From: Spironucleus salmonicida
Taxonomy: Eukaryota
Length of the DNA: 33,199 bases
Direction of reading: 5' to 3'
Assembly: GCF_000497125.1 (NCBI RefSeq)
Contig: NW_027150713.1
Coordinates: 1-33,199, forward strand
Each line of letters starts with the position of its first letter. Position 1 is the stretch's first letter. This document shows, in pieces, positions 1 through 33,199 of this stretch. Position numbers and translations under genes: made by a program. The notes beneath the pieces were generated by a model. The model worked only from the letters and a program-made list of their open reading frames with translations, ran no database searches and had not been told where the DNA came from.

Positions 1-500
1 AACCTACTACCTACCTACCTACCTACCTACCTACCTACCTACCTACCTACCTACCTACCTACCTACCTACCTACCTACCTACCTACCTACCTACCTACCT
101 ACCTACCTACCTACCTACCTACCTACCTACCTACCTACCTACCTACCTACCTACCTACCTACCTACCTACCTACCTACCTACCTACCTACCTACCTACCT
201 ACCTACCTACCTACCTACCTACCTACCTACCTACCTACCTACCTACCTACCTACCTACCTACCTACCTACCTACCTACCTACCTACCTACCTACCTACCT
301 ACCTACCTACCTACCTACCTACCTACCTACCTACCTACCTACCTACCTACCTACCTACCTACCTACCTACCTACCTACCTACCTACCTACCTACCTACCT
401 ACCTACCTACCTACCTACCTACCTACCTACCTACCTACCTACCTACCTACCTACCTACCTACCTACCTACCTACCTACCTACCTACCTACCTATACCTAC
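1..500 (-). repeat. Telomeric repeat tract (TAGG)n, seen as (ACCT)n on the + strand
   Basis: Perfect ACCT tetramers run from 9 to 492 (121 units), with one ACT variant at 6-8 and a degenerate ATACCTAC at 493-500. The C-rich strand sits at the 5' end of the window, as expected for a left chromosome end. Confidence 0.93.
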
Positions 501-1005: not shown

Positions 1006-1207
1006 GGCAGATGACTGGTATAGCTGAATTCATACATGGCCAGAACAGGTGCTAAAATTTACCCTAAAATAGGTACGATGGAGCTGTAGTGGTTACCTGC
1101 AAGCATAATTAAAAAAATTAGTGTGCGAAATAATAAAACTAAATGGTAGTATTGACGGTTTTAATCAAAAAGACAATAGACAGTGAGTTCAATTCCCACT
1201 GTCTGCA
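1006..1207 (-). other. Putative 3' external transcribed spacer with stem-loops
   Basis: GC-richer island just downstream of the LSU on the minus strand. A 10-bp hairpin at 1178-1204 reads AGACAGTGGG-AATTGAA-CTCACTGTCT on minus, giving a G-U pair on minus but an A-C mismatch on plus. Confidence 0.45.
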
Positions 1208-1239
1208 AAATTAATAATCTAAACTATATATTTTGCATA

Positions 1240-1501
1240 GCTTAACGACTCAATCGAAACTTTATCGTGAACACTAGCAAATATTTTCTAGAAAAGATTT
1301 GCTAATTGCAAATCAGCATTCTTGCCTCAATGATCTATTGATCGCGACGCTCTTGTGGGGTAGTTTCACACTTAGATGCAGTCAGCGCTAATCTGTCTTG
1401 GGTGGCTTCGCAGCACTGGTATGTCAACCAACTGCATAAACTAGAGCCAAGTACAAATGGTTCCTCTCGTACTGAAATTGTATGCCACTTAAGTGATAGG
1501 A

Positions 1502-1558
<57 letters not shown>

Positions 1559-1649
1559 CACGGGTGAACAATCCGACACTTTCACAATTATGCTTGTGAA
1601 TGATAGGAAGAGCCGACATCGAAGAATCAAAAAGCCACGTCGCTATGAT

Positions 1650-1693
<44 letters not shown>

Positions 1694-4102
1694 TCACCTT
1701 TATGTTAACAATCTAAACAAGTTAAAGGATCGATAGGCCACGCTTTCACGGTGTATCTCGCCAATGACGAAATAAATCAGGTGAGCTTTTGCCCTTTTAC
1801 TCTACAACAGGTTTCCGTCCTGTTTGAGCTCACTTTAGGACGCCTGCGTTGCTTTTTAGCAGGCGCGCCGCCCCAGCCAAACTCCCCATCAAACGATGTA
1901 TATGAATAACATTAATTACTAAGATAATGGATTTACCATATAAGCGGAACAATGAGAGGTATCAGGGTTTTTCATGGTTGATTACTCTGCCCTGTAGCCT
2001 ACATTACCACCATCGTTCCACAACGTCTAACTAGAGTCAAGCTCAACAGGGTCTTCTTGCCCCGCTGGCCATTACCACTCGCCCGTTCCCGAGTCTGTAG
2101 TTTCGCGAAGATGCATCTAGGGACAGTAAGAACCTCGTTAATCCATTCATGCACGTCCAAAATTACTGGACGAGGCATTTGGCTACCTTAAAAGAGTCAT
2201 AGTTACTCCCGCCGTTTACCAGAGCTTGAATAACTTTCATCATATTGACATGCATAGCACTGGGCAGAAATCACATCGTGTCAAAACAAGTTGAAGCTAT
2301 CACGATGCTATGTTTTAATTAGACAGTCAGGTTCTTCTTGTCCGTTCCAGTTCTGATAGTAAGGAATTATCATCTCTTGAAGAGCAGTTCTATTCAACTA
2401 GACCTGAAAGTAAACCCTCAAGTTTCGTCGGTAGACATAAGCAGGACAAAAGATGATCCTAGATCAGAGCCACCCCTTTTCCCAAAGTTACGGAGCTAAT
2501 TTGCCGACTTCCCTTAGACACGTTATCTTCACACTAGAGGTTGTTAACCTTAGAGACCTGATGCGGTTATGGGTACGCCGTGACATGTTTATTAACTGGT
2601 ATTTTTCATGGGACTTCCCTAATCACGTTATACCGCAAATGCGATATTCTTCCGGTTACAATGCAGCTTCTATGACTAAATCATTCCACTGCGTTGACGC
2701 CGTTAAGAAGAAAAGACTATCCTTCAACGGACTAAAAGAAGTCTGGTACCAGGCAACTAGTCGCCTATAACAAATCACTAACGGGAATATTAACCCGTTT
2801 CCCTTTCGACCAGAGAATGGGACTAGCCACATGCCTTCTATTTTTCAACAGTCGCTTAGGAACGTATCACCCACGAGTCGTATAACGGCGCCGTGGAAGC
2901 CTTCTCTTCTTCAGTCTTCTGGCATACCAGAATAATTGCTACTACTACCTAGATCTGCACTAAAGTAACCTCTATACGACCTCACGATCATACTTCTAAG
3001 GTAACTTCACGACCTCCTACCCATTTTTGTGGTGCAGTATAAATACCAGGTTTAAGCGCGATCCATTTTTCGGACTAGGTAATTCGGCTGGTGGGTTGTT
3101 ACACACTCCTTAGAGAATTCCAACTTCTATGGCCATCTTCCAGCTGTCAATATTACCTAACGCCGTTTAGTCTGATGAACCTGGTTTACGCACTTTAACT
3201 GCACTATCGGAGCAATCCGCCTTGCCAATCCTGCTTACCAAGAGGGGCCCACTAGTTAACACTTGTATTTAAAATTACCCTTCAATTAAGAAAGAATAAC
3301 GCTCTGTATTCGGAGTTTGAGAGTCGGATGAGGACTGATCCCCACTATCTCCAATCATTGTCTCTACTACTAGAAACTACATTGTTAACCGCTATCCTGA
3401 GAGAAATTTCGGAGGTAACCAGCTACTAGATGGTTCGATGAGTCTTTCGCCCCTATACCCAACTCTGACAAGCGATTTGCACGTCAGCAACGTTACGAAC
3501 CTCCATCAGTCTTTCGACTGACTTCATTCTGGTCAGGTATAGATCACTATCTTTCGGGTCTACTTCGGCCGGCTTAGCCTAAAAGAATTATGGCAATTTA
3601 ATTATGACTTTCATTGCGCAGGATAGTTTAACACTATAATACTCGCCGGTCAAAATAAGTCCTAGGTCCGTGTTTCGAGACGGGCGAGAAGCCTGCAAAT
3701 ATTAATTACAGACATCCCCTTTAAGAAAGGGTTTCACGTCCTTTTAAATGACCCTTTAAGAGTCTGCTTTTCACAATTCGCTCACGCTACTCGGTACACT
3801 ATCGGTCTTGGATCGCTATTTAGTCTTAGAAGGATTGTACCTCCTGATTCATACTATACTCTCAAACAGTACTACTTAATCCATCATAAAGTGCAACGTT
3901 CTACAGGGACTTTCACCCTCTTTGGTCAGCCATTCCGGACTGTTACGAACTCTAGCAATATGAAGACAGACAACTCAGACGATTACTGTCAGACATTTCC
4001 CTTTTCGCTCGCCGCTACTAGAGGAATCTCTGTTGATTTCTTTTCCTTGGCTTATTGATATGCTTAAGTTCAGCCAGTAATCCACATTGAACCAGACGAC
4101 AA
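1240..4102 (-). rRNA. Large-subunit (28S-type) rRNA, compact, about 2.86 kb
   Basis: Reverse complements of universal motifs are present: sarcin-ricin loop AGTACGAGAGGAAC (1460-1473), peptidyl-transferase region GGGATAACTGGCTTGTGG...TTCGATGTCGGCTCTTCC (about 1606-1678), TTAAGGTAGCCAAA (2178-2191) and 5' GCTGAACTTAAGCATATCAATAAGC (about 4050-4074). The 3' end is approximate. Confidence 0.97.
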
Positions 4103-4140
4103 ATGATTTTGTTTATCTTTAATTAACGTTAGTTATTTTT
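4103..4140 (-). other. ITS2, about 38 nt, AT-rich
   Basis: Lies between the 5.8S 3' end (ACATTGTTCCAGAACGG) and the LSU 5' end (TCGTCTGGTTCAATGT). These two ends base-pair with each other, as in the canonical proximal stem. Confidence 0.75.
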
Positions 4141-4280
4141 GAGACCGTTCTGGAACAATGTTTAGAGTATTACATTCAAGAATCGATGCTTCGCAGGTCA
4201 TTACAGGTCCACATCGCAAATATCGCTTTGTGTCACGCTCTTCCTCGATATCCAAACCAATGGATCCACCCAATCCTATT
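4141..4280 (-). rRNA. 5.8S rRNA, about 140 nt
   Basis: Minus strand reads GGTGGATCCATTGGTTTGGATATCGAGGAAGAGCGTGAC...GCATCGATTCTTGAATGTAA, matching the 5.8S GGATC..TTGG, TCGATGAAGAACG and CATCGAATCTTTGAACGCA motifs. Its 3' end pairs with the LSU 5' end. Boundaries are approximate. Confidence 0.88.
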
Positions 4281-4328
4281 GGTAGTAAAGAGCGAACTCC
4301 TACTACCTAAAATTGTGAGATGATAATT
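4281..4328 (-). other. ITS1, about 48 nt, containing one UUCG-capped hairpin
   Basis: Minus strand GGTAGTAGGAG-TTCG-CTCTTTACTACC at 4281-4307, between the SSU 3' end and the 5.8S. Confidence 0.75.
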
Positions 4329-5823
4329 TAATGATCCTGCTGCAGGTTCCCCTACAGCAGCCTTGTTACGACTTCTCCTTCCTCTAGAAGAGCGGGCTCG
4401 CAATTGTTGCTACATAACGATACGAAATGTAGGTCCGAATAACTCACCAGATCTTCCCAATCAGTAGGAGCGACGGGCGGTGTGTACAAGGGGTAGGGAC
4501 GTAATCAGCGTAGATTCATAACCTACACTTACTAGACATTCCTCATTTATGAAGGATAATTTCAACCTTCAAGCCTAACCACGACAAGTTTTAATGAACT
4601 GCCACCATTTTCAGGGAAGCAACACGATGAACCTGCCATTGTAGTACGCGTGCGGCCTAGGGCTTCTAAGGGCATCACAGACCTGTTTTTGCCTCTGCCT
4701 TCCTCTAGTTCATCACTAGCAGTCTCAGATAATTAATCTGATAGAGGTCTCGTTCGTTATCGCAATAAAGCAGACAATTTAAATCACGGACTAAGAACGG
4801 CCATGCACCACCAACAACTTAATCATGAAAGATCACTCATCTGTCAATCCTCAAAGCTTCTGGGCCTAGTAAGATTTGCGTGTTGAGTCAAATTGAGCCG
4901 CAGACTCCACGTCTGGTGGTACCTCTCCGTCAATCCCTTCAAGTTTCAACCTTGCGATCATACTTCCCCCAGAGTCTGAAACCTTACGATTTCTCTTGGC
5001 AAATGAAGTAAAAACCCCATCAGCTAGGCGACATCGTTTAGGGTCAGGAATAAAACGGTTTCTAATCGTCGTCTATCCCCTGACTTTAGTTCTTGATCGT
5101 GATACTTAGACTGCGTTGGGAGCCTCCGCTACCGTTGGTCTTCGATAGATCATCCTATTTCACCTGTCCCTATCGAGTACCCCAAACTACGCCAAATACC
5201 GCATTATAATTTCATACTATAAAAACAGTTAAGTAGTTATAAACACTTAGATTTACTTATAGTGAAAAAGAAAATAAACTACGAACTTTTTAACTGCAGC
5301 AACACAATAGAATACTCTCCGTGTCGGAATTACCGCGGCTGCTGGCACCGAGCTTTCCCACGAATAACCGGTTAGCTTAGATATAACAGGCCCTAGATGG
5401 TGTACAAAAGTACCCTTCATTTCTTGTCACTGCCTCGTAACGAATACATTGGGCAATTTCCGCGCCTGCTGCCTTCCTTAGATGTATGAGCTGTTTCTCA
5501 TGCTCATTCTCCGGAGTCAAACCCTAATTCCCCGTAAGCGTCGAATCCTTGGTAGGCAAATACCCCACCAACGTAAGATGATGCTGCAGTGGCAGATATG
5601 CAAACGTACTTACTATTATCTTTAGTAGAATACTAAACATAGTTCATGTATTACTAACAGATTTTCCGTTACTATCCAACGAAATACATTGCATGTACTA
5701 ACCACTGATAAATGAGCTGTTCGCCGTCTTCGCTCCACAATAATGAATATAACTGTCTACACATAGGCATGCATGGCTTAATCTTTAAGAGAAGTATGCT
5801 ATCCTGGCAGGGTCAACCAGATA
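4329..5823 (-). rRNA. Small-subunit (18S-type) rRNA, about 1495 nt
   Basis: Minus strand has 5' TATCTGGTTGACCCTGCCAG (5804-5823), GTGCCAGCAGCCGCGGTAATTCC (about 5326-5348), TGTACACACCGCCCGT (4473-4488) and 3' GTCGTAACAAGG...GGATCATTA. The short length and AATTCCGACAC after the 530 loop resemble hexamitid diplomonad SSU as I recall it (not searched). Confidence 0.98.
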
Positions 5824-6076
5824 ATAATAATGAAAAAATTTCAAAAGTAAAATTAAGTAGTACCCGAATATTAATAAATATTAATTATATTTTTTAACAT
5901 ATTTTGTTAAATATATCCCGCATTAAAAATGCGATTGAATGATGATTAAAAGGTGATATTAATAGTTAACCCCGCTAATAGGGGTGTTTTGTTGTATTCT
6001 ATAGTTAAAAAGATACTTGTAGTTATAGAATACATTGCATAATGAAGAAATGTGTTGAATAAATATATTTATATGA

Positions 6077-6534
6077 TTTTAGGTAGGGCGGCATTATTTT
6101 AGGTAAGGGTGGTTTTAGGTAAGGGTGGTTTAAGGAAGGGTGGTTTAAGGAAGGGTGGTTTAAGGGAATGGAGGTATTATTTTAGGTAAGGGTGGTTTTA
6201 GGTAAGGGTGGTTTAAGGAAGGGTGGTTTAAGGGAATGGAGGTATTATTTTAGGTAAGGGTGGTTTTAGGTAAGGGTGGTTTAAGGAAGGGTGGTTTAAG
6301 GGAATGGAGGTATTATTTTAGGTAAGGGTGGTTTTAGGTAAGGGTGGTTTTAAGGAAGGGTGATTTAAGGGAATGGAGGTATTATTTTAGGTAAGGGTGG
6401 TTTTAGGTAAGGGTGGTTTTAAGGAAGGGTGATTTAAGGAAGGGTGATTTAAGGGAATGGAGGTATTATTTTAGGTAAGGGTGGTTTTAGGTAAGGGTGA
6501 TTTAAGGAAGGGTGATTTAAGGGAAGGGTGATTT
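6077..6534. repeat. G-rich intergenic-spacer minisatellite with higher-order structure
   Basis: 15-16-bp monomers TTTTAGGTAAGGGTGG, TTTAAGGAAGGGTGG/A and TTTAAGGGAATGGAGG are arranged in blocks of about 67-83 bp, each starting at (G/C)ATTATTTTAGG. The array begins about 250 nt upstream of the SSU 5' end. Confidence 0.92.
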
Positions 6535-6644
6535 ATTTTTAAGAGAACAAAAAAATACATAATTGCAACTAAGCACTATTCTACTTCCGTAGTTAAAATT
6601 ACTACAAAATTCTTGATAATACAGTTATTCTAATTCATCATTTT

Positions 6645-6982
6645 GTTATTTGTGACAACAAATTAGACGAATCTAATTATCATGTCAAATCTCAATGTCT
6701 ATTAAAAGCCTTCGCGCATAATCCTGAATGACTATCATTACCCCCTAAGTATGAAGTTTAAAATTTCACCGGTTAAGGTTATCGACCAACTTGCAGGTAT
6801 TTAAGCGATAGCAGCCGCAGAACATATGCAGCTTAAAATAGACATTATGCTCGTTATCCGAAAATAACGAGTTGAGATAATCCAACCTAAAATAAGATCT
6901 AGACATAGGGATAGGTCACAAGAGACAAGCATCATCCGCAGGCCTCTTCCTCACTATCGATAGTAGGTCAGTTTCAAATAAC
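6645..6982 (-). ncRNA. Candidate structured RNA domain A (paralog of domain B), family unknown
   Basis: Closed by GTTATTTG/CAAATAAC (6645-6652/6975-6982). It has UUCG hairpins at 6661-6678 and 6850-6871, and the stem AATGTCTATT/AATAGACATT (6694-6703/6837-6846) encloses a 133-nt insert. Stems covary with domain B. Confidence 0.6.
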
Positions 6983-7114
6983 GCTAATCTGATTCAGAAT
7001 GATAGTATTATCAATACAATTGCATAATCTATTTTATTTAGGGGGACGTGTTAATTTTACAATTGGGTCTGTCCCAAAACTTCATAGTAGATCGTAATCT
7101 CCACTATCTACTCA

Positions 7115-7404
7115 CACTATCTGGAAACAACAAACCAGACGAATCTGGTTCAAAGCACTACAAGGGTGAATACCGACACGTAATCTTTTAGCGTGGTCAA
7201 ACCACCGTTACGAAGAGTTCTGTTATGTAGTGCAGATGTCAAATTTTAATGTCTATAAATAGACATTCTTGTTATCCGAAAATAACAAGTTAAATAAATT
7301 AACTTAAGATAAGATCTTGCGATGCATAGGGACAGATCATAAGGAGCATGCATCGCTGCATGCCACATGGTCACTATCGATAATAAGCTTCATTTCAAAT
7401 AGTG
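7115..7404 (-). ncRNA. Candidate structured RNA domain B (paralog of domain A), family unknown
   Basis: Closed on minus by CACTATTTG/CAGATAGTG (7396-7404/7115-7123, one G-U). It has UUCG hairpins at 7133-7150 and 7268-7289, a GCGATGCAT/ATGCATCGC stem, and an insert closed by GCACTACA/TGTAGTGC (7155-7162/7226-7233). Confidence 0.6.
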
Positions 7405-7569
7405 CTAGTAGATTGTGTTATCTAAATATAGATAATTTTCTACTATTGGGTTTCTCTCCTAATCAGTAATACCTTTCCTTATTACCGATAGTGGGACCCG
7501 ACCCAATTGGTCCCACATATATATAGTCAATTTCAAGAGGACAGCTTAGATGCCTGGGTATATTAGTTA

Positions 7570-8005
7570 AACTTCATTTTTTCTTACAATATTTTTTTCT
7601 AAAAATAGATTCATCAATAATATATTATGTATAATATAAAATTTAGTAAAATAAATAATAGTTATTATATATTTATAATTATATTTTTATTTATCTTATA
7701 CTATAAATAGAATAAACATTTAAAATATCATTTATATATAAATATTACTAATATATTATATATTATTGAGTTTTTAGATTAATTTTCAGTTTCTAATATT
7801 TTAAAAATATATATATACTACTATATAATAATGTGTTATTACTATTAATCTTATATTCAATATAATAATATGTTTAATTAATTTTTCACTTTAATAATTT
7901 TAATAATTTATAAATATGTATTTATATATATTATATAACACATATTTTTTAAAATATATAAATTTTACAAATAATTATAAAATTTAATAAAATTTAATAT
8001 CTATG
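7570..8005. other. Extremely AT-rich low-complexity tract
   Basis: Almost only A/T, with TA runs. It has a sharp boundary with the GC-richer structured island at about 7565. Confidence 0.7.
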
Positions 8006-8518
8006 TATAATAATAGCATAATGCAAAACTATATTTTGAAAGTCTGCAAAAAGTATACTTATTTTTTCAGTATTGTATATATACTCCGCCACTATATTAA
8101 TATGTATTGTATTAAAATTTACACCAACTTATCATATGCATAAAAAGTAGCTACTTTATATATAAATCATATATAATAATAGCATAATGCAAAACTATAT
8201 TTTGAAAGTCTGCAAAAAGTATACTTATTTTTTCAGTATTGTATATATACTCCGCCACTATATTAATATGTATTGTATTAAAATTTACACCAACTTATCA
8301 TATGCATAAAAAGTAGCTATTTTATATATAAATCATATATAATAATAGCATAATGCAAAACTATATTTTGAAAGTCTGCAAAAAGTATACTTATTTTTTC
8401 AGTATTGTATATATACTCCGCCACTATATTAATATGTATTGTATTAAAATTTACACCAACTTATCATATGCATAAAAAGTAGCTACTTTATATATAAATC
8501 ATATATAATAATAGCATA
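8006..8518. repeat. Tandem repeat, 3.1 x 166 bp
   Basis: TATAATAATAGCATA starts at 8006, 8172, 8338 and 8504. Copies look identical except CTACTTT vs CTATTTT in copy 2. Confidence 0.95.
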
Positions 8519-9565
8519 CACTTTGAAATATGTGTATTATATTATTATATATTAATAATCATAACCTTATAATTTCAAATGAGGCATATAGGTAACCCGT
8601 AATTAGGATAAATATATAATTAACTATGTTATTATAACCTTATATATATATAAAGTACTAATAATATAGTTAATTATAACTATATTTAACATAATTATAG
8701 TATTCTTTAATGTGTGTATTAATTTTATTATTAATTCTTAAACAAACATTACGACGTGCCTCGCAACTCCGGGTGCAGTTTATAGTTGTTGGTATAAATA
8801 TAATTATCTATAGAAATTTGAACTTTTTCATCTTATGCCAGCAAACTTCATTTTTAGCTTCGAATTGAAAAGTAAAAAAGTAGGTTTTGGTGGCATAGAC
8901 GATATCACCATCCACTAGGTGGGTACATAATATTAGCATCATATGTATGATTAGAATTAAGCTTAAGATCCATTTTTGTCATCATAGCAATGTTAAATTA
9001 AATTCGAGATTTCAAAAAATTAGGCCATCCTAAAATTCAACTTTCAACAATCATTCCCCTATATGATCACGGTGATTAGGAATATTTAAATATATATATG
9101 GATGCTAATTGCTTTTTAGCATCTTTACATCCTATTATTGTATCAAATAATAGGAGTTAGTGTACATGAATCTAGTATATTTTATAATGTTACGTGCTTA
9201 ACATTTGCGTGCTCATATACTTCTATATCTCTTAATAGTTATTTTCATCACTTTGTGTCAATCATTTATCTAGTAATTTATTCATTTAATACCATGCAGT
9301 TTTATCTCCATTGAATAAGGAATGTAAAAATCGGAGAGATTACAAATATGTATATAATGATTATTATATATTTAAATTAATATATAATATTTTGAGATAA
9401 ATCAAAAATAAATTGCTTGCATTTGGAGTGTTAAAACTATATAAATTATTAATATCAATATATTCTAGTTATTATTTTTTTTACGTTTTATTGACGTACT
9501 AATTTATTGTAGTAGTATATCTTTTTATAAGTTTGTTGTTAAAATATAGATTATAAACATAAATC

Positions 9566-12500
9566 TATAATATTATGTTTTTTCCACTTTATTTTCTATT
9601 CCTTACTTAATATTATATAGTATATAATAACTTTTAGCTTTTGAAAACTACGAAACTATATATCTCCCACTTCTGCTGTTGTATACTTAAATCTTTTTAA
9701 GTATTATAGCCAATATATAGTATAATATAATTGTGTATAGTAGAAGTTTCCTACGTATGGGTAACGGCAATTATAAATTTTTAACGATGCCTCTGGGCTT
9801 AAGTCCAGATAATGGCATAATAGTTTGGCCGAAAGTTGAAATCCCAAAAAAGGTCAATTGTGAGTGGAGGCTCAGTTTCATTTTTAGCAAGACAGAACTG
9901 TCTGTTACAATAAAAATGAAACAATGAAAATTAATTTAACAAAAATAAAATAGAAAACGACCTTTTATCATCAGGTCGGCCAAAACTATTATCGATTAAA
10001 ATTTTTGAGTAGGAATTTTAAAAAAGTGATTTTTCAAACATTCACTAGGCGACTAGCAATTGAGGGTCCTTGTGTTAACACATTTTGGTGGTGCTAGATG
10101 ACTTCTCGGGATGACCTTGTGCGAAACATGATCTAGGTTTGTCAGAGAGATGAGAACCGACATAAATATTATATATTCTATATATCGACAATATATGCAT
10201 AAATTAGTTTTTTCTACGTATACAATTCTGCAAAAACTGAAATGTTGATATTTGTTGAGGTTACTAGTTTTTTAGTTTCTGTATTGTGAAAACAATACAA
10301 AATTTAATATAATATAAAAAATATACAAATATTTTTGTATAATATAAAATTAAGATTTAGATTTATGTATTAGTATTATATATATTACGAATATTAACGT
10401 TTTTCAATTTACTGTATATGTTAGTTTCTGGCAGAGATAGAAAAGGAAAAAATATAGTATATATATAATAGATATATATATTCTATATTGTATTTTAAAA
10501 GTACTTATTTTTCAAACGATTCGTCCAAAAAGGTCAAAAAATCATTATTTTGACACCTGTTGTGGAGTGGTACTTTTTGAAAAAAGGAGTTATGTAATTA
10601 TTATATAGGATTATGTTAAACTTATTTTTTTCAAATTTTCACACACTTTGTTATGGTGTAGTATTATGCAATTTTTCTATTGTTTAAAGTGGTGAAAAAA
10701 ATAATATATATATATTATAGGTATATTTTTTTGGTTTATAATATTGGAAAGATTTGTATTTTATATTAGTTTTGTACATAATTACATCAAAATTATACAT
10801 ACAAAATTACTATAAAATTCAGTTTCTACAGTTTCTATAGATTATTCAATATACAGACATATTATATTTACATATATATTAATAAATGTATTTTAAAGTA
10901 CTCAAATTTATCAAACAAACCCATCAACACTATCACAAAACTCACTATAAAATTTTATTAAAATTTTAAAGCCTATACTTGTATGGTTAAAATAAAACTT
11001 TTGTATTTTAAAAGTATATATATATAATAATATGTTTTAGAGTGGCAATATTTTTAGTATATTCTGGTATATAATATTATGTTTTTTCCACTTTATTTTC
11101 TATTCCTTACTTAATATTATATAGTATATAATAACTTTTAGCTTTTGAAAACTACGAAACTATATATCTCCCACTTCTGCTGTTGTATACTTAAATCTTT
11201 TTAAGTATTATAGCCAATATATAGTATAATATAATTGTGTATAGTAGAAGTTTCCTACGTATGGGTAACGGCAATTATAAATTTTTAACGATGCCTCTGG
11301 GCTTAAGTCCAGATAATGGCATAATAGTTTGGCCGAAAGTTGAAATCCCAAAAAAGGTCAATTGTGAGTGGAGGCTCAGTTTCATTTTTAGCAAGACAGA
11401 ACTGTCTGTTACAATAAAAATGAAACAATGAAAATTAATTTAACAAAAATAAAATAGAAAACGACCTTTTATCATCAGGTCGGCCAAAACTATTATCGAT
11501 TAAAATTTTTGAGTAGGAATTTTAAAAAAGTGATTTTTCAAACATTCACTAGGCGACTAGCAATTGAGGGTCCTTGTGTTAACACATTTTGGTGGTGCTA
11601 GATGACTTCTCGGGATGACCTTGTGCGAAACATGATCTAGGTTTGTCAGAGAGATGAGAACCGACATAAATATTATATATTCTATATATCGACAATATAT
11701 GCATAAATTAGTTTTTTCTACGTATACAATTCTGCAAAAACTGAAATGTTGATATTTGTTGAGGTTACTAGTTTTTTAGTTTCTGTATTGTGAAAACAAT
11801 ACAAAATTTAATATAATATAAAAAATATACAAATATTTTTGTATAATATAAAATTAAGATTTAGATTTATGTATTAGTATTATATATATTACGAATATTA
11901 ACGTTTTTCAATTTACTGTATATGTTAGTTTCTGGCAGAGATAGAAAAGGAAAAAATATAGTATATATATAATAGATATATATATTCTATATTGTATTTT
12001 AAAAGTACTTATTTTTCAAACGATTCGTCCAAAAAGGTCAAAAAATCATTATTTTGACACCTGTTGTGGAGTGGTACTTTTTGAAAAAAGGAGTTATGTA
12101 ATTATTATATAGGATTATGTTAAACTTATTTTTTTCAAATTTTCACACACTTTGTTATGGTGTAGTATTATGCAATTTTTCTATTGTTTAAAGTGGTGAA
12201 AAAAATAATATATATATATTATAGGTATATTTTTTTGGTTTATAATATTGGAAAGATTTGTATTTTATATTAGTTTTGTACATAATTACATCAAAATTAT
12301 ACATACAAAATTACTATAAAATTCAGTTTCTACAGTTTCTATAGATTATTCAATATACAGACATATTATATTTACATATATATTAATAAATGTATTTTAA
12401 AGTACTCAAATTTATCAAACAAACCCATCAACACTATCACAAAACTCACTATAAAATTTTATTAAAATTTTAAAGCCTATACTTGTATGGTTAAAATAAA

Positions 12501-15500
12501 ACTTTTGTATTTTAAAAGTATATATATATAATAATATGTTTTAGAGTGGCAATATTTTTAGTATATTCTGGTATATAATATTATGTTTTTTCCACTTTAT
12601 TTTCTATTCCTTACTTAATATTATATAGTATATAATAACTTTTAGCTTTTGAAAACTACGAAACTATATATCTCCCACTTCTGCTGTTGTATACTTAAAT
12701 CTTTTTAAGTATTATAGCCAATATATAGTATAATATAATTGTGTATAGTAGAAGTTTCCTACGTATGGGTAACGGCAATTATAAATTTTTAACGATGCCT
12801 CTGGGCTTAAGTCCAGATAATGGCATAATAGTTTGGCCGAAAGTTGAAATCCCAAAAAAGGTCAATTGTGAGTGGAGGCTCAGTTTCATTTTTAGCAAGA
12901 CAGAACTGTCTGTTACAATAAAAATGAAACAATGAAAATTAATTTAACAAAAATAAAATAGAAAACGACCTTTTATCATCAGGTCGGCCAAAACTATTAT
13001 CGATTAAAATTTTTGAGTAGGAATTTTAAAAAAGTGATTTTTCAAACATTCACTAGGCGACTAGCAATTGAGGGTCCTTGTGTTAACACATTTTGGTGGT
13101 GCTAGATGACTTCTCGGGATGACCTTGTGCGAAACATGATCTAGGTTTGTCAGAGAGATGAGAACCGACATAAATATTATATATTCTATATATCGACAAT
13201 ATATGCATAAATTAGTTTTTTCTACGTATACAATTCTGCAAAAACTGAAATGTTGATATTTGTTGAGGTTACTAGTTTTTTAGTTTCTGTATTGTGAAAA
13301 CAATACAAAATTTAATATAATATAAAAAATATACAAATATTTTTGTATAATATAAAATTAAGATTTAGATTTATGTATTAGTATTATATATATTACGAAT
13401 ATTAACGTTTTTCAATTTACTGTATATGTTAGTTTCTGGCAGAGATAGAAAAGGAAAAAATATAGTATATATATAATAGATATATATATTCTATATTGTA
13501 TTTTAAAAGTACTTATTTTTCAAACGATTCGTCCAAAAAGGTCAAAAAATCATTATTTTGACACCTGTTGTGGAGTGGTACTTTTTGAAAAAAGGAGTTA
13601 TGTAATTATTATATAGGATTATGTTAAACTTATTTTTTTCAAATTTTCACACACTTTGTTATGGTGTAGTATTATGCAATTTTTCTATTGTTTAAAGTGG
13701 TGAAAAAAATAATATATATATATTATAGGTATATTTTTTTGGTTTATAATATTGGAAAGATTTGTATTTTATATTAGTTTTGTACATAATTACATCAAAA
13801 TTATACATACAAAATTACTATAAAATTCAGTTTCTACAGTTTCTATAGATTATTCAATATACAGACATATTATATTTACATATATATTAATAAATGTATT
13901 TTAAAGTACTCAAATTTATCAAACAAACCCATCAACACTATCACAAAACTCACTATAAAATTTTATTAAAATTTTAAAGCCTATACTTGTATGGTTAAAA
14001 TAAAACTTTTGTATTTTAAAAGTATATATATATAATAATATGTTTTAGAGTGGCAATATTTTTAGTATATTCTGGTATATAATATTATGTTTTTTCCACT
14101 TTATTTTCTATTCCTTACTTAATATTATATAGTATATAATAACTTTTAGCTTTTGAAAACTACGAAACTATATATCTCCCACTTCTGCTGTTGTATACTT
14201 AAATCTTTTTAAGTATTATAGCCAATATATAGTATAATATAATTGTGTATAGTAGAAGTTTCCTACGTATGGGTAACGGCAATTATAAATTTTTAACGAT
14301 GCCTCTGGGCTTAAGTCCAGATAATGGCATAATAGTTTGGCCGAAAGTTGAAATCCCAAAAAAGGGCAATTGTGAGTGGAGGCTCAGTTTCATTTTTAGC
14401 AAGACAGAACTGTCTGTTACAATAAAAATGAAACAATGAAAATTAATTTAACAAAAATAAAATAGAAAACGACCTTTTATCATCAGGTCGGCCAAAACTA
14501 TTATCGATTAAAATTTTTGAGTAGGAATTTTAAAAAAGTGATTTTTCAAACATTCACTAGGCGACTAGCAATTGAGGGTCCTTGTGTTAACACATTTTGG
14601 TGGTGCTAGATGACTTCTCGGGATGACCTTGTGCGAAACATGATCTAGGTTTGTCAGAGAGATGAGAACCGACATAAATATTATATATTCTATATATCGA
14701 CAATATATGCATAAATTAGTTTTTTCTACGTATACAATTCTGCAAAAACTGAAATGTTGATATTTGTTGAGGTTACTAGTTTTTTAGTTTCTGTATTGTG
14801 AAAACAATACAAAATTTAATATAATATAAAAAATATACAAATATTTTTGTATAATATAAAATTAAGATTTAGATTTATGTATTAGTATTATATATATTAC
14901 GAATATTAACGTTTTTCAATTTACTGTATATGTTAGTTTCTGGCAGAGATAGAAAAGGAAAAAATATAGTATATATATAATAGATATATATATTCTATAT
15001 TGTATTTTAAAAGTACTTATTTTTCAAACGATTCGTCCAAAAAGGTCAAAAAATCATTATTTTGACACCTGTTGTGGAGTGGTACTTTTTGAAAAAAGGA
15101 GTTATGTAATTATTATATAGGATTATGTTAAACTTATTTTTTTCAAATTTTCACACACTTTGTTATGGTGTAGTATTATGCAATTTTTCTATTGTTTAAA
15201 GTGGTGAAAAAAATAATATATATATATTATAGGTATATTTTTTTGGTTTATAATATTGGAAAGATTTGTATTTTATATTAGTTTTGTACATAATTACATC
15301 AAAATTATACATACAAAATTACTATAAAATTCAGTTTCTACAGTTTCTATAGATTATTCAATATACAGACATATTATATTTACATATATATTAATAAATG
15401 TATTTTAAAGTACTCAAATTTATCAAACAAACCCATCAACACTATCACAAAACTCACTATAAAATTTTATTAAAATTTTAAAGCCTATACTTGTATGGTT

Positions 15501-18500
15501 AAAATAAAACTTTTGTATTTTAAAAGTATATATATATAATAATATGTTTTAGAGTGGCAATATTTTTAGTATATTCTGGTATATAATATTATGTTTTTTC
15601 CACTTTATTTTCTATTCCTTACTTAATATTATATAGTATATAATAACTTTTAGCTTTTGAAAACTACGAAACTATATATCTCCCACTTCTGCTGTTGTAT
15701 ACTTAAATCTTTTTAAGTATTATAGCCAATATATAGTATAATATAATTGTGTATAGTAGAAGTTTCCTACGTATGGGTAACGGCAATTATAAATTTTTAA
15801 CGATGCCTCTGGGCTTAAGTCCAGATAATGGCATAATAGTTTGGCCGAAAGTTGAAATCCCAAAAAAGGGCAATTGTGAGTGGAGGCTCAGTTTCATTTT
15901 TAGCAAGACAGAACTGTCTGTTACAATAAAAATGAAACAATGAAAATTAATTTAACAAAAATAAAATAGAAAACGACCTTTTATCATCAGGTCGGCCAAA
16001 ACTATTATCGATTAAAATTTTTGAGTAGGAATTTTAAAAAAGTGATTTTTCAAACATTCACTAGGCGACTAGCAATTGAGGGTCCTTGTGTTAACACATT
16101 TTGGTGGTGCTAGATGACTTCTCGGGATGACCTTGTGCGAAACATGATCTAGGTTTGTCAGAGAGATGAGAACCGACATAAATATTATATATTCTATATA
16201 TCGACAATATATGCATAAATTAGTTTTTTCTACGTATACAATTCTGCAAAAACTGAAATGTTGATATTTGTTGAGGTTACTAGTTTTTTAGTTTCTGTAT
16301 TGTGAAAACAATACAAAATTTAATATAATATAAAAAATATACAAATATTTTTGTATAATATAAAATTAAGATTTAGATTTATGTATTAGTATTATATATA
16401 TTACGAATATTAACGTTTTTCAATTTACTGTATATGTTAGTTTCTGGCAGAGATAGAAAAGGAAAAAATATAGTATATATATAATAGATATATATATTCT
16501 ATATTGTATTTTAAAAGTACTTATTTTTCAAACGATTCGTCCAAAAAGGTCAAAAAATCATTATTTTGACACCTGTTGTGGAGTGGTACTTTTTGAAAAA
16601 AGGAGTTATGTAATTATTATATAGGATTATGTTAAACTTATTTTTTTCAAATTTTCACACACTTTGTTATGGTGTAGTATTATGCAATTTTTCTATTGTT
16701 TAAAGTGGTGAAAAAAATAATATATATATATTATAGGTATATTTTTTTGGTTTATAATATTGGAAAGATTTGTATTTTATATTAGTTTTGTACATAATTA
16801 CATCAAAATTATACATACAAAATTACTATAAAATTCAGTTTCTACAGTTTCTATAGATTATTCAATATACAGACATATTATATTTACATATATATTAATA
16901 AATGTATTTTAAAGTACTCAAATTTATCAAACAAACCCATCAACACTATCACAAAACTCACTATAAAATTTTATTAAAATTTTAAAGCCTATACTTGTAT
17001 GGTTAAAATAAAACTTTTGTATTTTAAAAGTATATATATATAATAATATGTTTTAGAGTGGCAATATTTTTAGTATATTCTGGTATATAATATTATGTTT
17101 TTTCCACTTTATTTTCTATTCCTTACTTAATATTATATAGTATATAATAACTTTTAGCTTTTGAAAACTACGAAACTATATATCTCCCACTTCTGCTGTT
17201 GTATACTTAAATCTTTTTAAGTATTATAGCCAATATATAGTATAATATAATTGTGTATAGTAGAAGTTTCCTACGTATGGGTAACGGCAATTATAAATTT
17301 TTAACGATGCCTCTGGGCTTAAGTCCAGATAATGGCATAATAGTTTGGCCGAAAGTTGAAATCCCAAAAAAGGGCAATTGTGAGTGGAGGCTCAGTTTCA
17401 TTTTTAGCAAGACAGAACTGTCTGTTACAATAAAAATGAAACAATGAAAATTAATTTAACAAAAATAAAATAGAAAACGACCTTTTATCATCAGGTCGGC
17501 CAAAACTATTATCGATTAAAATTTTTGAGTAGGAATTTTAAAAAAGTGATTTTTCAAACATTCACTAGGCGACTAGCAATTGAGGGTCCTTGTGTTAACA
17601 CATTTTGGTGGTGCTAGATGACTTCTCGGGATGACCTTGTGCGAAACATGATCTAGGTTTGTCAGAGAGATGAGAACCGACATAAATATTATATATTCTA
17701 TATATCGACAATATATGCATAAATTAGTTTTTTCTACGTATACAATTCTGCAAAAACTGAAATGTTGATATTTGTTGAGGTTACTAGTTTTTTAGTTTCT
17801 GTATTGTGAAAACAATACAAAATTTAATATAATATAAAAAATATACAAATATTTTTGTATAATATAAAATTAAGATTTAGATTTATGTATTAGTATTATA
17901 TATATTACGAATATTAACGTTTTTCAATTTACTGTATATGTTAGTTTCTGGCAGAGATAGAAAAGGAAAAAATATAGTATATATATAATAGATATATATA
18001 TTCTATATTGTATTTTAAAAGTACTTATTTTTCAAACGATTCGTCCAAAAAGGTCAAAAAATCATTATTTTGACACCTGTTGTGGAGTGGTACTTTTTGA
18101 AAAAAGGAGTTATGTAATTATTATATAGGATTATGTTAAACTTATTTTTTTCAAATTTTCACACACTTTGTTATGGTGTAGTATTATGCAATTTTTCTAT
18201 TGTTTAAAGTGGTGAAAAAAATAATATATATATATTATAGGTATATTTTTTTGGTTTATAATATTGGAAAGATTTGTATTTTATATTAGTTTTGTACATA
18301 ATTACATCAAAATTATACATACAAAATTACTATAAAATTCAGTTTCTACAGTTTCTATAGATTATTCAATATACAGACATATTATATTTACATATATATT
18401 AATAAATGTATTTTAAAGTACTCAAATTTATCAAACAAACCCATCAACACTATCACAAAACTCACTATAAAATTTTATTAAAATTTTAAAGCCTATACTT

Positions 18501-21500
18501 GTATGGTTAAAATAAAACTTTTGTATTTTAAAAGTATATATATATAATAATATGTTTTAGAGTGGCAATATTTTTAGTATATTCTGGTATATAATATTAT
18601 GTTTTTTCCACTTTATTTTCTATTCCTTACTTAATATTATATAGTATATAATAACTTTTAGCTTTTGAAAACTACGAAACTATATATCTCCCACTTCTGC
18701 TGTTGTATACTTAAATCTTTTTAAGTATTATAGCCAATATATAGTATAATATAATTGTGTATAGTAGAAGTTTCCTACGTATGGGTAACGGCAATTATAA
18801 ATTTTTAACGATGCCTCTGGGCTTAAGTCCAGATAATGGCATAATAGTTTGGCCGAAAGTTGAAATCCCAAAAAAGGTCAATTGTGAGTGGAGGCTCAGT
18901 TTCATTTTTAGCAAGACAGAACTGTCTGTTACAATAAAAATGAAACAATGAAAATTAATTTAACAAAAATAAAATAGAAAACGACCTTTTATCATCAGGT
19001 CGGCCAAAACTATTATCGATTAAAATTTTTGAGTAGGAATTTTAAAAAAGTGATTTTTCAAACATTCACTAGGCGACTAGCAATTGAGGGTCCTTGTGTT
19101 AACACATTTTGGTGGTGCTAGATGACTTCTCGGGATGACCTTGTGCGAAACATGATCTAGGTTTGTCAGAGAGATGAGAACCGACATAAATATTATATAT
19201 TCTATATATCGACAATATATGCATAAATTAGTTTTTTCTACGTATACAATTCTGCAAAAACTGAAATGTTGATATTTGTTGAGGTTACTAGTTTTTTAGT
19301 TTCTGTATTGTGAAAACAATACAAAATTTAATATAATATAAAAAATATACAAATATTTTTGTATAATATAAAATTAAGATTTAGATTTATGTATTAGTAT
19401 TATATATATTACGAATATTAACGTTTTTCAATTTACTGTATATGTTAGTTTCTGGCAGAGATAGAAAAGGAAAAAATATAGTATATATATAATAGATATA
19501 TATATTCTATATTGTATTTTAAAAGTACTTATTTTTCAAACGATTCGTCCAAAAAGGTCAAAAAATCATTATTTTGACACCTGTTGTGGAGTGGTACTTT
19601 TTGAAAAAAGGAGTTATGTAATTATTATATAGGATTATGTTAAACTTATTTTTTTCAAATTTTCACACACTTTGTTATGGTGTAGTATTATGCAATTTTT
19701 CTATTGTTTAAAGTGGTGAAAAAAATAATATATATATATTATAGGTATATTTTTTTGGTTTATAATATTGGAAAGATTTGTATTTTATATTAGTTTTGTA
19801 CATAATTACATCAAAATTATACATACAAAATTACTATAAAATTCAGTTTCTACAGTTTCTATAGATTATTCAATATACAGACATATTATATTTACATATA
19901 TATTAATAAATGTATTTTAAAGTACTCAAATTTATCAAACAAACCCATCAACACTATCACAAAACTCACTATAAAATTTTATTAAAATTTTAAAGCCTAT
20001 ACTTGTATGGTTAAAATAAAACTTTTGTATTTTAAAAGTATATATATATAATAATATGTTTTAGAGTGGCAATATTTTTAGTATATTCTGGTATATAATA
20101 TTATGTTTTTTCCACTTTATTTTCTATTCCTTACTTAATATTATATAGTATATAATAACTTTTAGCTTTTGAAAACTACGAAACTATATATCTCCCACTT
20201 CTGCTGTTGTATACTTAAATCTTTTTAAGTATTATAGCCAATATATAGTATAATATAATTGTGTATAGTAGAAGTTTCCTACGTATGGGTAACGGCAATT
20301 ATAAATTTTTAACGATGCCTCTGGGCTTAAGTCCAGATAATGGCATAATAGTTTGGCCGAAAGTTGAAATCCCAAAAAAGGGCAATTGTGAGTGGAGGCT
20401 CAGTTTCATTTTTAGCAAGACAGAACTGTCTGTTACAATAAAAATGAAACAATGAAAATTAATTTAACAAAAATAAAATAGAAAACGACCTTTTATCATC
20501 AGGTCGGCCAAAACTATTATCGATTAAAATTTTTGAGTAGGAATTTTAAAAAAGTGATTTTTCAAACATTCACTAGGCGACTAGCAATTGAGGGTCCTTG
20601 TGTTAACACATTTTGGTGGTGCTAGATGACTTCTCGGGATGACCTTGTGCGAAACATGATCTAGGTTTGTCAGAGAGATGAGAACCGACATAAATATTAT
20701 ATATTCTATATATCGACAATATATGCATAAATTAGTTTTTTCTACGTATACAATTCTGCAAAAACTGAAATGTTGATATTTGTTGAGGTTACTAGTTTTT
20801 TAGTTTCTGTATTGTGAAAACAATACAAAATTTAATATAATATAAAAAATATACAAATATTTTTGTATAATATAAAATTAAGATTTAGATTTATGTATTA
20901 GTATTATATATATTACGAATATTAACGTTTTTCAATTTACTGTATATGTTAGTTTCTGGCAGAGATAGAAAAGGAAAAAATATAGTATATATATAATAGA
21001 TATATATATTCTATATTGTATTTTAAAAGTACTTATTTTTCAAACGATTCGTCCAAAAAGGTCAAAAAATCATTATTTTGACACCTGTTGTGGAGTGGTA
21101 CTTTTTGAAAAAAGGAGTTATGTAATTATTATATAGGATTATGTTAAACTTATTTTTTTCAAATTTTCACACACTTTGTTATGGTGTAGTATTATGCAAT
21201 TTTTCTATTGTTTAAAGTGGTGAAAAAAATAATATATATATATTATAGGTATATTTTTTTGGTTTATAATATTGGAAAGATTTGTATTTTATATTAGTTT
21301 TGTACATAATTACATCAAAATTATACATACAAAATTACTATAAAATTCAGTTTCTACAGTTTCTATAGATTATTCAATATACAGACATATTATATTTACA
21401 TATATATTAATAAATGTATTTTAAAGTACTCAAATTTATCAAACAAACCCATCAACACTATCACAAAACTCACTATAAAATTTTATTAAAATTTTAAAGC

Positions 21501-22999
21501 CTATACTTGTATGGTTAAAATAAAACTTTTGTATTTTAAAAGTATATATATATAATAATATGTTTTAGAGTGGCAATATTTTTAGTATATTCTGGTATAT
21601 AATATTATGTTTTTTCCACTTTATTTTCTATTCCTTACTTAATATTATATAGTATATAATAACTTTTAGCTTTTGAAAACTACGAAACTATATATCTCCC
21701 ACTTCTGCTGTTGTATACTTAAATCTTTTTAAGTATTATAGCCAATATATAGTATAATATAATTGTGTATAGTAGAAGTTTCCTACGTATGGGTAACGGC
21801 AATTATAAATTTTTAACGATGCCTCTGGGCTTAAGTCCAGATAATGGCATAATAGTTTGGCCGAAAGTTGAAATCCCAAAAAAGGGCAATTGTGAGTGGA
21901 GGCTCAGTTTCATTTTTAGCAAGACAGAACTGTCTGTTACAATAAAAATGAAACAATGAAAATTAATTTAACAAAAATAAAATAGAAAACGACCTTTTAT
22001 CATCAGGTCGGCCAAAACTATTATCGATTAAAATTTTTGAGTAGGAATTTTAAAAAAGTGATTTTTCAAACATTCACTAGGCGACTAGCAATTGAGGGTC
22101 CTTGTGTTAACACATTTTGGTGGTGCTAGATGACTTCTCGGGATGACCTTGTGCGAAACATGATCTAGGTTTGTCAGAGAGATGAGAACCGACATAAATA
22201 TTATATATTCTATATATCGACAATATATGCATAAATTAGTTTTTTCTACGTATACAATTCTGCAAAAACTGAAATGTTGATATTTGTTGAGGTTACTAGT
22301 TTTTTAGTTTCTGTATTGTGAAAACAATACAAAATTTAATATAATATAAAAAATATACAAATATTTTTGTATAATATAAAATTAAGATTTAGATTTATGT
22401 ATTAGTATTATATATATTACGAATATTAACGTTTTTCAATTTACTGTATATGTTAGTTTCTGGCAGAGATAGAAAAGGAAAAAATATAGTATATATATAA
22501 TAGATATATATATTCTATATTGTATTTTAAAAGTACTTATTTTTCAAACGATTCGTCCAAAAAGGTCAAAAAATCATTATTTTGACACCTGTTGTGGAGT
22601 GGTACTTTTTGAAAAAAGGAGTTATGTAATTATTATATAGGATTATGTTAAACTTATTTTTTTCAAATTTTCACACACTTTGTTATGGTGTAGTATTATG
22701 CAATTTTTCTATTGTTTAAAGTGGTGAAAAAAATAATATATATATATTATAGGTATATTTTTTTGGTTTATAATATTGGAAAGATTTGTATTTTATATTA
22801 GTTTTGTACATAATTACATCAAAATTATACATACAAAATTACTATAAAATTCAGTTTCTACAGTTTCTATAGATTATTCAATATACAGACATATTATATT
22901 TACATATATATTAATAAATGTATTTTAAAGTACTCAAATTTATCAAACAAACCCATCAACACTATCACAAAACTCACTATAAAATTTTATTAAAATTTT
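9566..22999. repeat. Tandem array, about 8.9 x 1504 bp (subtelomeric macrosatellite)
   Basis: Units start at 9566, 11070, 12574, 14078, 15582, 17086, 18590, 20094 and 21598, and the ORF track repeats with exact 1504 spacing. The only difference I noticed between copies is a T/G at unit position equivalent to 9854. Confidence 0.97.
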
Positions 23000-23755
23000 T
23001 TAACCCTTGTTTGAAGCTTATTATTAAAAATATCAAATAAAATTATTTTTAATATATATTATTATATGTTTTAAAATAAAATATTTACAATTAATTATTC
23101 TAGTTTCTTCTATAATTTGTGTGGCAATAATATATATATCTAAAATATACAATTATTTTCCTTTTTTAAGAGAGTATAATTTATTGAATATTACTATTAT
23201 ATTTGTATATTATATTAGTTGTTATAAGTTTTCCTTTTCTTTTTTACATTAATATAATTATAATTATATAAAATTAATAATTTTAAAATGGGTAATGATA
23301 ATAAAAATTAAAATGATCAAAAAAGTAAAGGAAATGGAAATTTATATTATTATATAATGAATATAATTTTATTAAAAAAAATAATGATCTATTCAGAGTT
23401 GAACCCAGTATTAGTAAAATTAAAAAAAATCGCTTATAACATCTAAACAAAAATTATTATTTATAGATTTTTGGAGTGGAAATATTTTTAAGAATTTAAA
23501 TAAATGGATATTATTATTATATATATTTAGATATACCATGGAAAGAAGAAATATTACGTATAATAAACAATAATATTAACAAATCAATTTATCGTAAAAA
23601 TGGATAATTAATAATTTCATATATATAAAATAGTACTAAAAATAGTCTCTAGAATATATTATATATAAAACTTTTTCTACCAGAAAAAGGAAGTATTGTA
23701 TAATACAATATAAAAATTATAATCCTATTTTTTTTTATAATTGAAAAATAATATG

Positions 23756-32700: not shown

Positions 32701-33199
32701 ATGTATTTATATATTTAGAATGGTGGACTTTGTAATATAATTTTACTGGAACTATCTTCACTTCACATCAATATTAATTTAAATAATATAATATAGATAT
32801 AGGAATAGAAAATTTTGCCTATTATATAGGCGATTATCAGGTCAAGACCGTTGAATTTTGAAAATTGATATATATAATTGAAATTAATAAATATAAATAT
32901 AAGTAATTTCTCAAAAACTCGTAAAAAAGAAACTTACTATGGGGGAAAAAATAATACTTTATTAATATTATATCAAAATACAACTAATGAGATTATCCAG
33001 TCATCTTAAGAAAAAGTCAAATTAATTTCATTTTTCATTCCACTTGAGGGCCCCTTTCTAAAATTAGGAATGGAAAAGGAATGGAAAATATATGCTAATG
33101 GACTGACAACAATGAAACGAAAATTTAATTTGTTTTTGAATATTCCGTAAGCATGTGGAGTGGTAAACACTACTTGCAATAAATCTAAAAATAGATTTT
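23756..33199. repeat. Tandem duplication of a 5186-bp unit (copy 1 23756-28941; copy 2 28942 to window end, incomplete)
   Basis: ATTATATATGAATAATATAGTGTTTGGTG occurs at 23756 and 28942. All four small ORFs recur at +5186, and the window end 33191-33199 matches 28005-28013. Confidence 0.96.

Follow-up and report, generated by a model that had tools for sequence, protein, structure and literature searches.

In a 33,199-nt stretch of the Spironucleus salmonicida contig NW_027150713.1 (hereafter the window), two adjacent and related elements, module A (6645–6982) and module B (7115–7404), lie upstream of the 18S ribosomal RNA (rRNA) gene. They are a real and well-supported pair of paralogous folded modules and most likely represent a new, lineage-specific structured domain of the pre-rRNA's 5′ external transcribed spacer (abbreviated as 5′ ETS). 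The modules are duplicated, their pairing has been kept through compensatory changes, each copy possesses its own closing stem, and both occupy an rRNA-sense position: read on the minus strand, they are found (6645–7404) upstream of the 5′ end of the small-subunit (SSU) rRNA gene (4329–5823, minus), as a 5′ ETS would be, at a distance of 822–1581 nt from that end (5823).

Two diverged copies

A and B are homologous, diverged copies. A MAFFT alignment of 6640–6990 with 7110–7410, both taken from the minus strand, gave a mean column identity of 76%. With blastn a high-scoring segment pair of 157 columns was obtained (74.5% identity, E 1e-19), and a block alignment based on sequence alone contained 166 identical among 209 aligned columns, a divergence of 21%. 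A covariance model of the 5′ half (R1), run unfiltered, scored 161 bits in A (6847–6983) and 165.5 bits in B (7265–7404); its best further hit in the rest of the window reached 13.3 bits (E 1.5). A third copy was not found by blastn within the 33-kb window, so that A and B are its only two copies, and they are adjacent. The first-pass annotation of this DNA had described them as diverged paralogues with five helices that pair in both copies and with several runs conserved in primary sequence. Positions and sequences were confirmed, the paralogy is borne out by all three alignments, and the helices and runs are all present.

The leader upstream of B carries a partial third CGATAG-containing motif (7466–7493), 64% identical to that of A. 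It also shares a weak CCCAAU(A/U)GU..AAAAUUA stretch with the spacer between B and A. Homology between the leader (7405–7600) and this spacer is marginal, 24 of 300 shuffles being as good, and the extent of the duplication unit is undecided.

Pairing is retained beyond chance

The differences between A and B preserve base pairing beyond chance. For this comparison the minimum free energy (MFE) pairs of one copy were mapped through the sequence-only alignment onto the other, and the outcome was set against 20000 simulations in which the same number of stem sites was randomly substituted with the observed substitution spectrum. The helices were deliberately not chosen to suit both copies. When the minus-strand pairs of A were mapped onto B, 63 of 67 were kept and 4 were broken (null 53.1, sd 2.4), a value reached in 0 of 20000 simulations. 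Seven double-changed pairs were still paired, again with 0 of 20000 simulations as good (null 1.03). From B to A, 5 double changes were kept (null 1.11; 35 of 20000), while 2 double changes and 7 one-sided changes broke the pair. Stem sites had changed less than other aligned sites (17.9% vs 25.3%).

The curated common core comprises 8 helices with 51 pairs, among them 8 double compensatory changes, 5 one-sided changes (all via G.U) and no breaks; this count is biased by construction and only describes the model. Five of its 8 double changes fall into long-range helices (2 in P1, 1 in P2, 2 in P4) with arms ≈ 40–330 nt apart. Hairpin-templated local DNA repair is therefore a poor explanation for them. 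In the two paralogues compared, the fold has thus been conserved despite sequence change, as would be expected of a 5′ ETS domain.

Each copy has its own closing stem

The strongest single sign that a stem-closed folded domain is the unit under selection comes from the flanks of the cores. Beyond P1, each copy is closed by an interrupted helix of about 28 bp. The arms of A form a duplex of −19.2 kcal/mol (1 of 500 shuffles as good) and those of B one of −19.7 kcal/mol (2 of 500), whereas an A arm pairs with a B arm no better than chance (80 and 341 of 500 shuffles do as well). Nor can the flanks of one copy be aligned with those of the other, 53 and 84 of 300 shuffles scoring as well. Because each copy's own flanks are complementary but swapped or aligned flanks are not, the closing helix must have been kept in each copy while its sequences drifted apart. 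The core claim of the first-pass annotation, selection on a fold, which is probably an RNA fold of the rRNA-sense strand, is supported by the compensatory changes, these copy-specific stems and the absence of Rfam matches (see below).

Strand assignment

Both strands fold better than shuffled sequences (minus strand: z = −3.6, −4.0; plus strand: z = −3.8, −5.4; A and B respectively); fold energy consequently leaves the strand undecided. One-sided changes were more informative. From A to B, 6 of 10 such changes were still paired on the minus strand vs 1 of 7 on the plus strand, and the curated minus-strand core has 7 G.U and no A.C pairs. In the opposite direction, the figures were 3 of 10 (minus) and 6 of 17 (plus). 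An argument from G-U pairs for the minus strand had been made in advance; it holds no more than modestly. The rRNA-sense strand is modestly favoured, not proven.

Anatomy of the modules

Module features are listed in Table 1, together with the surrounding elements. Read on the minus strand, a module consists in order of the extended stem, P1, AAA, the P2 domain, the P4 domain, AUUUGACAU, the UUCG hairpin P7, UUUGUUGU and the 3′ strand of P1. The P2 domain contains UAUCGAUAGUGA, hairpin P3, UCCCUAUG and AGAUCUUAU, and the stem sequence of P3 is wholly different between A and B. The P4 domain contains an invariant UUCG hairpin, P5, and the hairpin P6. In the core of A, P6 is extended, and P8 completes the set of helices.

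Each copy carries one large insertion of its own. Neither is significantly structured when folded alone: for the insertion in A the z-score was −1.26 (23 of 200 shuffles as good) and for that in B −1.78 (13 of 200). Situated at a hairpin tip in A and at a junction in B, these large indels resemble expansion segments. RNAalifold, applied to the 5′ half alone, returned a local helix (GGUUGG/UCAACU vs AGUUAA/UUAACU, one compensatory change) that competes with P2 and P4. It may represent an alternative conformation and was kept outside the P1–P8 model.

Table 1. Modules A and B, their helices and the neighbouring elements of the rDNA unit. Helix sequences are given as 5′ strand/3′ strand.
Feature	Positions	Strand	Basis or remarks
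Module A core, 338 nt	6645–6982	minus	MAFFT, fold, helices, covariance model R1
Module B core, 290 nt	7115–7404	minus	P1–P8 as in A; MAFFT, fold, covariance model R1
A closing stem, 5′ arm	6983–7022	minus	inverted repeat I2 (6613–6652/6975–7014, 40 nt, 73% complementary)
A closing stem, 3′ arm	6605–6644	minus	I2, fold, duplex test
B closing stem, 5′ arm, with small side hairpin	7405–7448	minus	fold, duplex test
B closing stem, 3′ arm	7075–7114	minus	fold, duplex test
A-specific insertion, 133 nt, at P6 tip	6704–6836	minus	4-nt loop in B
B-specific insertion, 83 nt, between conserved AUUUGACAU and P7	7153–7235	minus	8-bp closing helix (centroid)
Helix P1			A GUUAUUUG/CAAAUAAC; B ACUAUUUG/CAGAUAGU
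Helix P2			A (G)ACCUA/UAGGU(U); B (A)GCUUA/UAAGU(U)
Helix P4			A CUCAA/UUGAG; B UUUAA/UUAAA
Helix P5			A CUCGUUAUU/GAUAACGAG; B CUUGUUAUU/GAUAACAAG
Helix P7			A AAUUAGA/UCUAAUU; B AACCAGA/UCUGGUU
Leader of normal composition, between AT-rich block and B	7449–7590	minus	composition step; GGGACC...GGUCCC hairpin in fold
Block of 4–13% G+C (100-nt windows), ~400 bp, directly upstream	7600–8000	unstranded	putative non-transcribed spacer/promoter
Tandem array, 16-nt units in 68-nt higher-order repeat, 443 bp	6097–6539	minus	between A and SSU
SSU rRNA gene	4329–5823	minus	Rfam RF01960, 1172.8 bits
LSU rRNA gene	1169–4100	minus	Rfam RF02543, 2122.8 bits

Database searches and rejected identities

When the whole window was searched with Rfam 15 at gathering thresholds, only the SSU and large-subunit (LSU) rRNA models passed. 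At E values up to 10, the segments 5700–8100, 6600–7030 and 7080–7600 gave nothing but sub-threshold noise, with snoR10 (25.8 bits, threshold 65) and RUF1 (18.7 bits, threshold 70) as the best. The noise families differ, none being common to A and B, and no family reaches even a tenth of significance. By eye, the modules had earlier been matched to none of the 5S, RNase P/MRP, SRP, snRNA, U3, group I/II or small-ribozyme consensus motifs, and the Rfam scan agrees. Pattern scans yielded 0 matches in metagenome contigs and 0 in viral contigs. Fifteen matches in prokaryote genome contigs are attributed to chance: none of the 15 has any further A/B motif, and the best scored 15.5 bits with the covariance model (E 2.5).

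Several identities were considered and rejected. Judged by eye, the topology does not fit RNase P/MRP: P2 is closed as soon as the first hairpin domain ends, not near the 3′ end, and no CR-I/CR-V-like pair was seen. As for telomerase RNA, the ACCUAC of A fits a (TAGG)n template but the GCUUAU of B does not, and this stretch forms one strand of a helix in which a compensatory change occurs. The candidate Sm sites AAUUUGA and GAUUUGA have only three U and thus fall below the RAU4-6GR described for Spironucleus small nuclear RNAs (PMC6679479). Inspected by eye, A and B have none of the canonical elements (box C/D, H/ACA, Sm) in common, and no ribozyme signature was found. A protein-coding gene is likewise dismissed, there being no open reading frame (ORF) of at least 100 aa with translation table 11, and chance-like frames only with table 6.

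The rDNA unit is subtelomeric

The ribosomal DNA (rDNA) unit of the window is encoded on the minus strand, and both its SSU and LSU genes are short. They are separated by a gap of 228 nt (4101–4328) with a 5.8S-like start near 4292. This leaves ~36 nt for the first internal transcribed spacer (ITS1), from the SSU end to the 5.8S-like start, and only ~63 extra nt at the position of ITS2. The 5.8S-like sequence was picked up by the bacterial LSU model, not by the Rfam 5.8S model. This pattern of small rRNAs and tiny ITS1 and ITS2 is diplomonad-like.

At the start of the window (2–493), ACCT is repeated 123 times in tandem; read on the minus strand this gives (TAGG)n, in the orientation of a chromosome end. 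As (TAGG)n matches the published telomeric repeat of S. salmonicida (PMC9509377), the rDNA unit is subtelomeric; the 3′ end of the LSU gene points to the telomere, ~680 bp off. An earlier guess, from the letters alone, of a diplomonad source is consistent with the tiny ITS1 and the (TAGG)n repeat. According to PMC9509377, 18S, 5.8S and 28S rRNA genes of this species occur once, on one small contig with 15x average coverage, and the 2014 genome likewise has them on one contig at tenfold coverage (PMC3916229). Judged by its features, the window fits a subtelomeric rDNA unit of S. salmonicida or a close relative.

Further repeats surround this unit. A 40-bp repeat, present four times (524–686), separates the telomeric repeat from the 3′ spacer, each copy being composed of two 20-bp half-units with a common GGAAGGTTATATC. 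Upstream of the modules are a 166-bp tandem repeat (8006–8518; 3.1 copies, 99% identity), a 1504-bp unit repeated about 9 times with 100% identity (~9560–23000), and a 5186-bp unit (23801–33186; ~1.8 copies, 94% identity in a 300-nt sample) which reaches the window end and has parts with ~30% G+C. The 1504-bp unit has no Pfam match (code 6) and no Rfam report at gathering thresholds, and the 5186-bp unit has no RNA family (Rfam), tRNA or Pfam match. The DNA upstream of the modules is without recognisable genes, and no tRNA was found there. With table 11, ORFs of at least 100 aa are confined to the telomeric repeat and the rRNA genes, and none overlaps the modules. With table 6 (Hexamita code), open frames occur on both strands, overlapping and chance-like; six such ORFs from elsewhere in the window had no Pfam match.

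Leader, AT-rich block and G-free array

From ~7590 down to 5824, the sequence is of normal complexity. The G+C content of A and B (29–43%) is in the neighbourhood of that of the rRNA genes (38–44%), as opposed to 4–13% in the block at 7600–8000, which is a candidate for a polymerase I promoter or spacer boundary. A leader extending from ~7590 to the SSU gene would be ~1.77 kb long. This is within the range known from protists, the 5′ ETS of Entamoeba measuring 2.67 kb (PMC3294279).

Between A and the SSU gene, the tandem array (6097–6539) is for the most part devoid of G on the rRNA-sense strand (skew 1.0 in windows 6100–6499), and the remaining 270 nt (5824–6096) are AT-rich with 19–30% G+C (100-nt windows). 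On the plus strand the array units resemble degenerate telomeric repeats (TAGGT, AAGGG). The array was found to contain 14 matches (6129–6528, minus) to the 12-nt motif [T/A/C]C[C/A]TT[T/C][A/T/C][C/T/A]T[C/T/A]AA known from the 3′ ends of Giardia non-coding RNAs (ncRNAs), where it serves processing (PMC3510501). They start ~105 nt after A and repeat one or two units of the array, CCCTTCCTTAAA and CCATTCCCTTAA. The 29 matches in the window, vs 9.6 expected, are inflated by repeats and near chance when counted as independent units. A minus-strand match, TCCTTTTTTCAA, is also present once in each 1504-bp unit.

A proposed structural domain of the pre-rRNA leader

We put about an even chance on A and B having arisen long ago by tandem duplication of a structural domain, specific to the lineage, in the pre-rRNA leader (5′ ETS) of a subtelomeric rDNA unit. 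Position, strand and composition favour this explanation, as does the absence of any alternative identity. Of the possibilities raised by the first-pass annotation, which spoke of a candidate undescribed structured ncRNA, the one it named third, a duplicated 5′ ETS domain, fits best by position and composition. The candidate undescribed structured ncRNA of its title is not established; neither a homologue beyond the window, in the contigs scanned, nor a ribozyme signature was found.

Transcription of the modules, their co-transcription with 18S and the binding of factors are what we infer from this arrangement. RNA polymerase I would start near the border of the 4–13% G+C block (~7590) and transcribe the minus strand, and the nascent leader would fold B first and then A. 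Each module could be an autonomous domain of ~360–420 nt with its own interrupted ~28-bp closing stem. The common eight-helix core, including the two invariant UUCG hairpins, would present the same single-stranded motifs, UAUCGAUAGUGA, UCCCUAUG, AGAUCUUAU, AUUUGACAU and UUUGUUGU, as putative sites where factors for early small-subunit assembly or processing bind. Folding of 18S may be shielded from interference by the long closing stems, which are possibly entry sites for a double-strand-specific nuclease removing the leader.

Several observations speak against this explanation. The covariation comes from one pairwise comparison of two paralogues, and only 51 of 60 minus-strand pairs were kept from B to A (1217 of 20000 simulations as good), a much weaker test because part of the MFE structure of B consists of helices in competition with those common to both copies. 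On the plus strand, 6 double changes were kept (2 of 20000 simulations), an excess that Watson-Crick swaps must produce there as well, so that only a few wobble pairs discriminate between the strands. No complementarity of the conserved motifs to the mature rRNA region was detected beyond chance after multiple testing. In duplex calculations of 10 conserved runs with the SSU–LSU region (60 shuffles each), 1 of the 10 beat all shuffles, and this run is a stem strand. Moreover, the two best-conserved unpaired motifs, TATCGATA and AGATCT, are perfect DNA palindromes, a form typical of protein-binding DNA sites. Finally, we infer the start of the primary transcript near the upstream border of the leader (~7590) from composition alone. 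The real promoter could lie in the G-free array or the AT-rich 270 nt, which would place A and B in non-transcribed spacer.

As the main rival explanation, A and B could be stable ncRNAs of an undescribed lineage-specific family acting in trans, e.g. in ribosome biogenesis or in the control of the subtelomeric rDNA, and released from the leader by RNase III-type cleavage in the closing stems or transcribed from promoters of their own. We regard this as possible but unlikely. The modules are self-contained, with ends joined by a helix that has been maintained independently in each copy, and they combine a conserved core with variable insertions. Retention of the fold in both copies after 21% divergence suggests that each is needed. 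There is a precedent in Entamoeba histolytica, where circular RNAs of 666–912 nt accumulate from the A′–A0 segment of the 5′ ETS (PMC3294279), and the motif matches downstream of A are on the same strand. Against this, no Rfam family matches, no copy exists elsewhere in the 33-kb window, and by eye the copies share none of the canonical elements (box C/D, H/ACA, Sm). The Giardia motif is reported not to be conserved in Spironucleus (PMC6679479), and its independent-unit matches are close to the chance expectation. By analogy, A and B might even be the first members of a diplomonad family of mid-size structured RNAs, excised via the closing stems, maybe circularised, and acting in trans, a proposal that we consider a little more doubtful still. 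Within such a family, the two paralogues would be able to base-pair through their palindromic loops (UAUCGAUA, AGAUCU), which are identical.

It is improbable that the repeats act as DNA, i.e. as a duplicated spacer promoter, enhancer, terminator or origin whose palindromes bind dimeric proteins, the apparent fold resulting from inverted repeats that DNA-level processes maintain. Sub-repeats in duplicate are common in rDNA spacers (PMC10319768), and the palindromic nature of the two best-conserved unpaired motifs, the nearly equal folding of both strands relative to shuffles and the partial third CGATAG-motif copy in the leader would all agree with a DNA element. However, of the 8 double compensatory changes, 5 fall into helices with distant arms, the closing stems co-vary without sequence conservation, and the one-sided changes favour G.U on one strand, which is of no use to DNA.

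Remnants of a non-autonomous foldback or miniature inverted-repeat transposable element inserted twice upstream of the rDNA are very improbable: size (360–420 bp), terminal inverted repeat flanks, AT-rich setting and absence of an ORF would suit, but in a transposon family the terminal inverted arms are the most conserved part, whereas here they cannot be aligned although the interior is conserved, neither copy shows a target-site duplication by eye, the 33-kb window has no other copy, and compensatory changes in internal helices are not expected.

Among the papers listed for Spironucleus and rDNA spacers, none deals by its title with the region upstream of 18S, and we found nothing in print on transcription or processing of diplomonad pre-rRNA there. 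The published genome papers, in the parts consulted, mention only rRNA genes on one collapsed contig of high coverage (PMC9509377, PMC3916229). A leader domain that was duplicated long ago and kept its fold in both copies marks a part of the spacer under selection. It gives targets for locating the polymerase I start, early cleavage sites and binding factors in organisms of this lineage, whose machinery for making ribosomes is much reduced. Should the modules be released as stable RNAs, they would constitute a new RNA family; should they be no more than ETS helices, the result is a useful annotation and no surprise.

Comparison with known systems

Stems of bacterial and archaeal rRNA operons and of small nucleolar RNA (snoRNA) precursors enclose an RNA and are cut by RNase III-type enzymes. 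As in these processing stems, long flanking helices here enclose a structured RNA, and the flanks co-vary while their sequence drifts. Unlike in those systems, the enclosed RNA is no known mature RNA, and cleavage is hypothetical. The arrangement of a structured RNA candidate followed by same-strand matches to the 12-nt motif recalls the ncRNA genes of Giardia (PMC3510501); the motif here is, however, the unit of a tandem array and not a single site at a mature 3′ end.

The etsRNA of Entamoeba also comes from an anaerobic protist with a long 5′ ETS, and there, too, a part of the spacer that behaves as a discrete, possibly regulatory RNA has its ends brought together; the long 5′ ETS and a discrete RNA are putative in the present case. 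In contrast to etsRNA, the modules are half that size and duplicated.

The 5′ ETS of yeast has a length of 700 nt. Its helices H1–H10, which recruit U3 snoRNA and 90S factors (PMC7297118), offer a further comparison. A difference is that here a whole multi-helix domain has been duplicated, each copy with a long closing stem, while yeast is not known to have such a paralogous pair. In common with the yeast ETS, the modules would form a lineage-specific structured RNA on the sense strand upstream of 18S, built from autonomous helical elements, with a conserved structure and a fast-evolving sequence.

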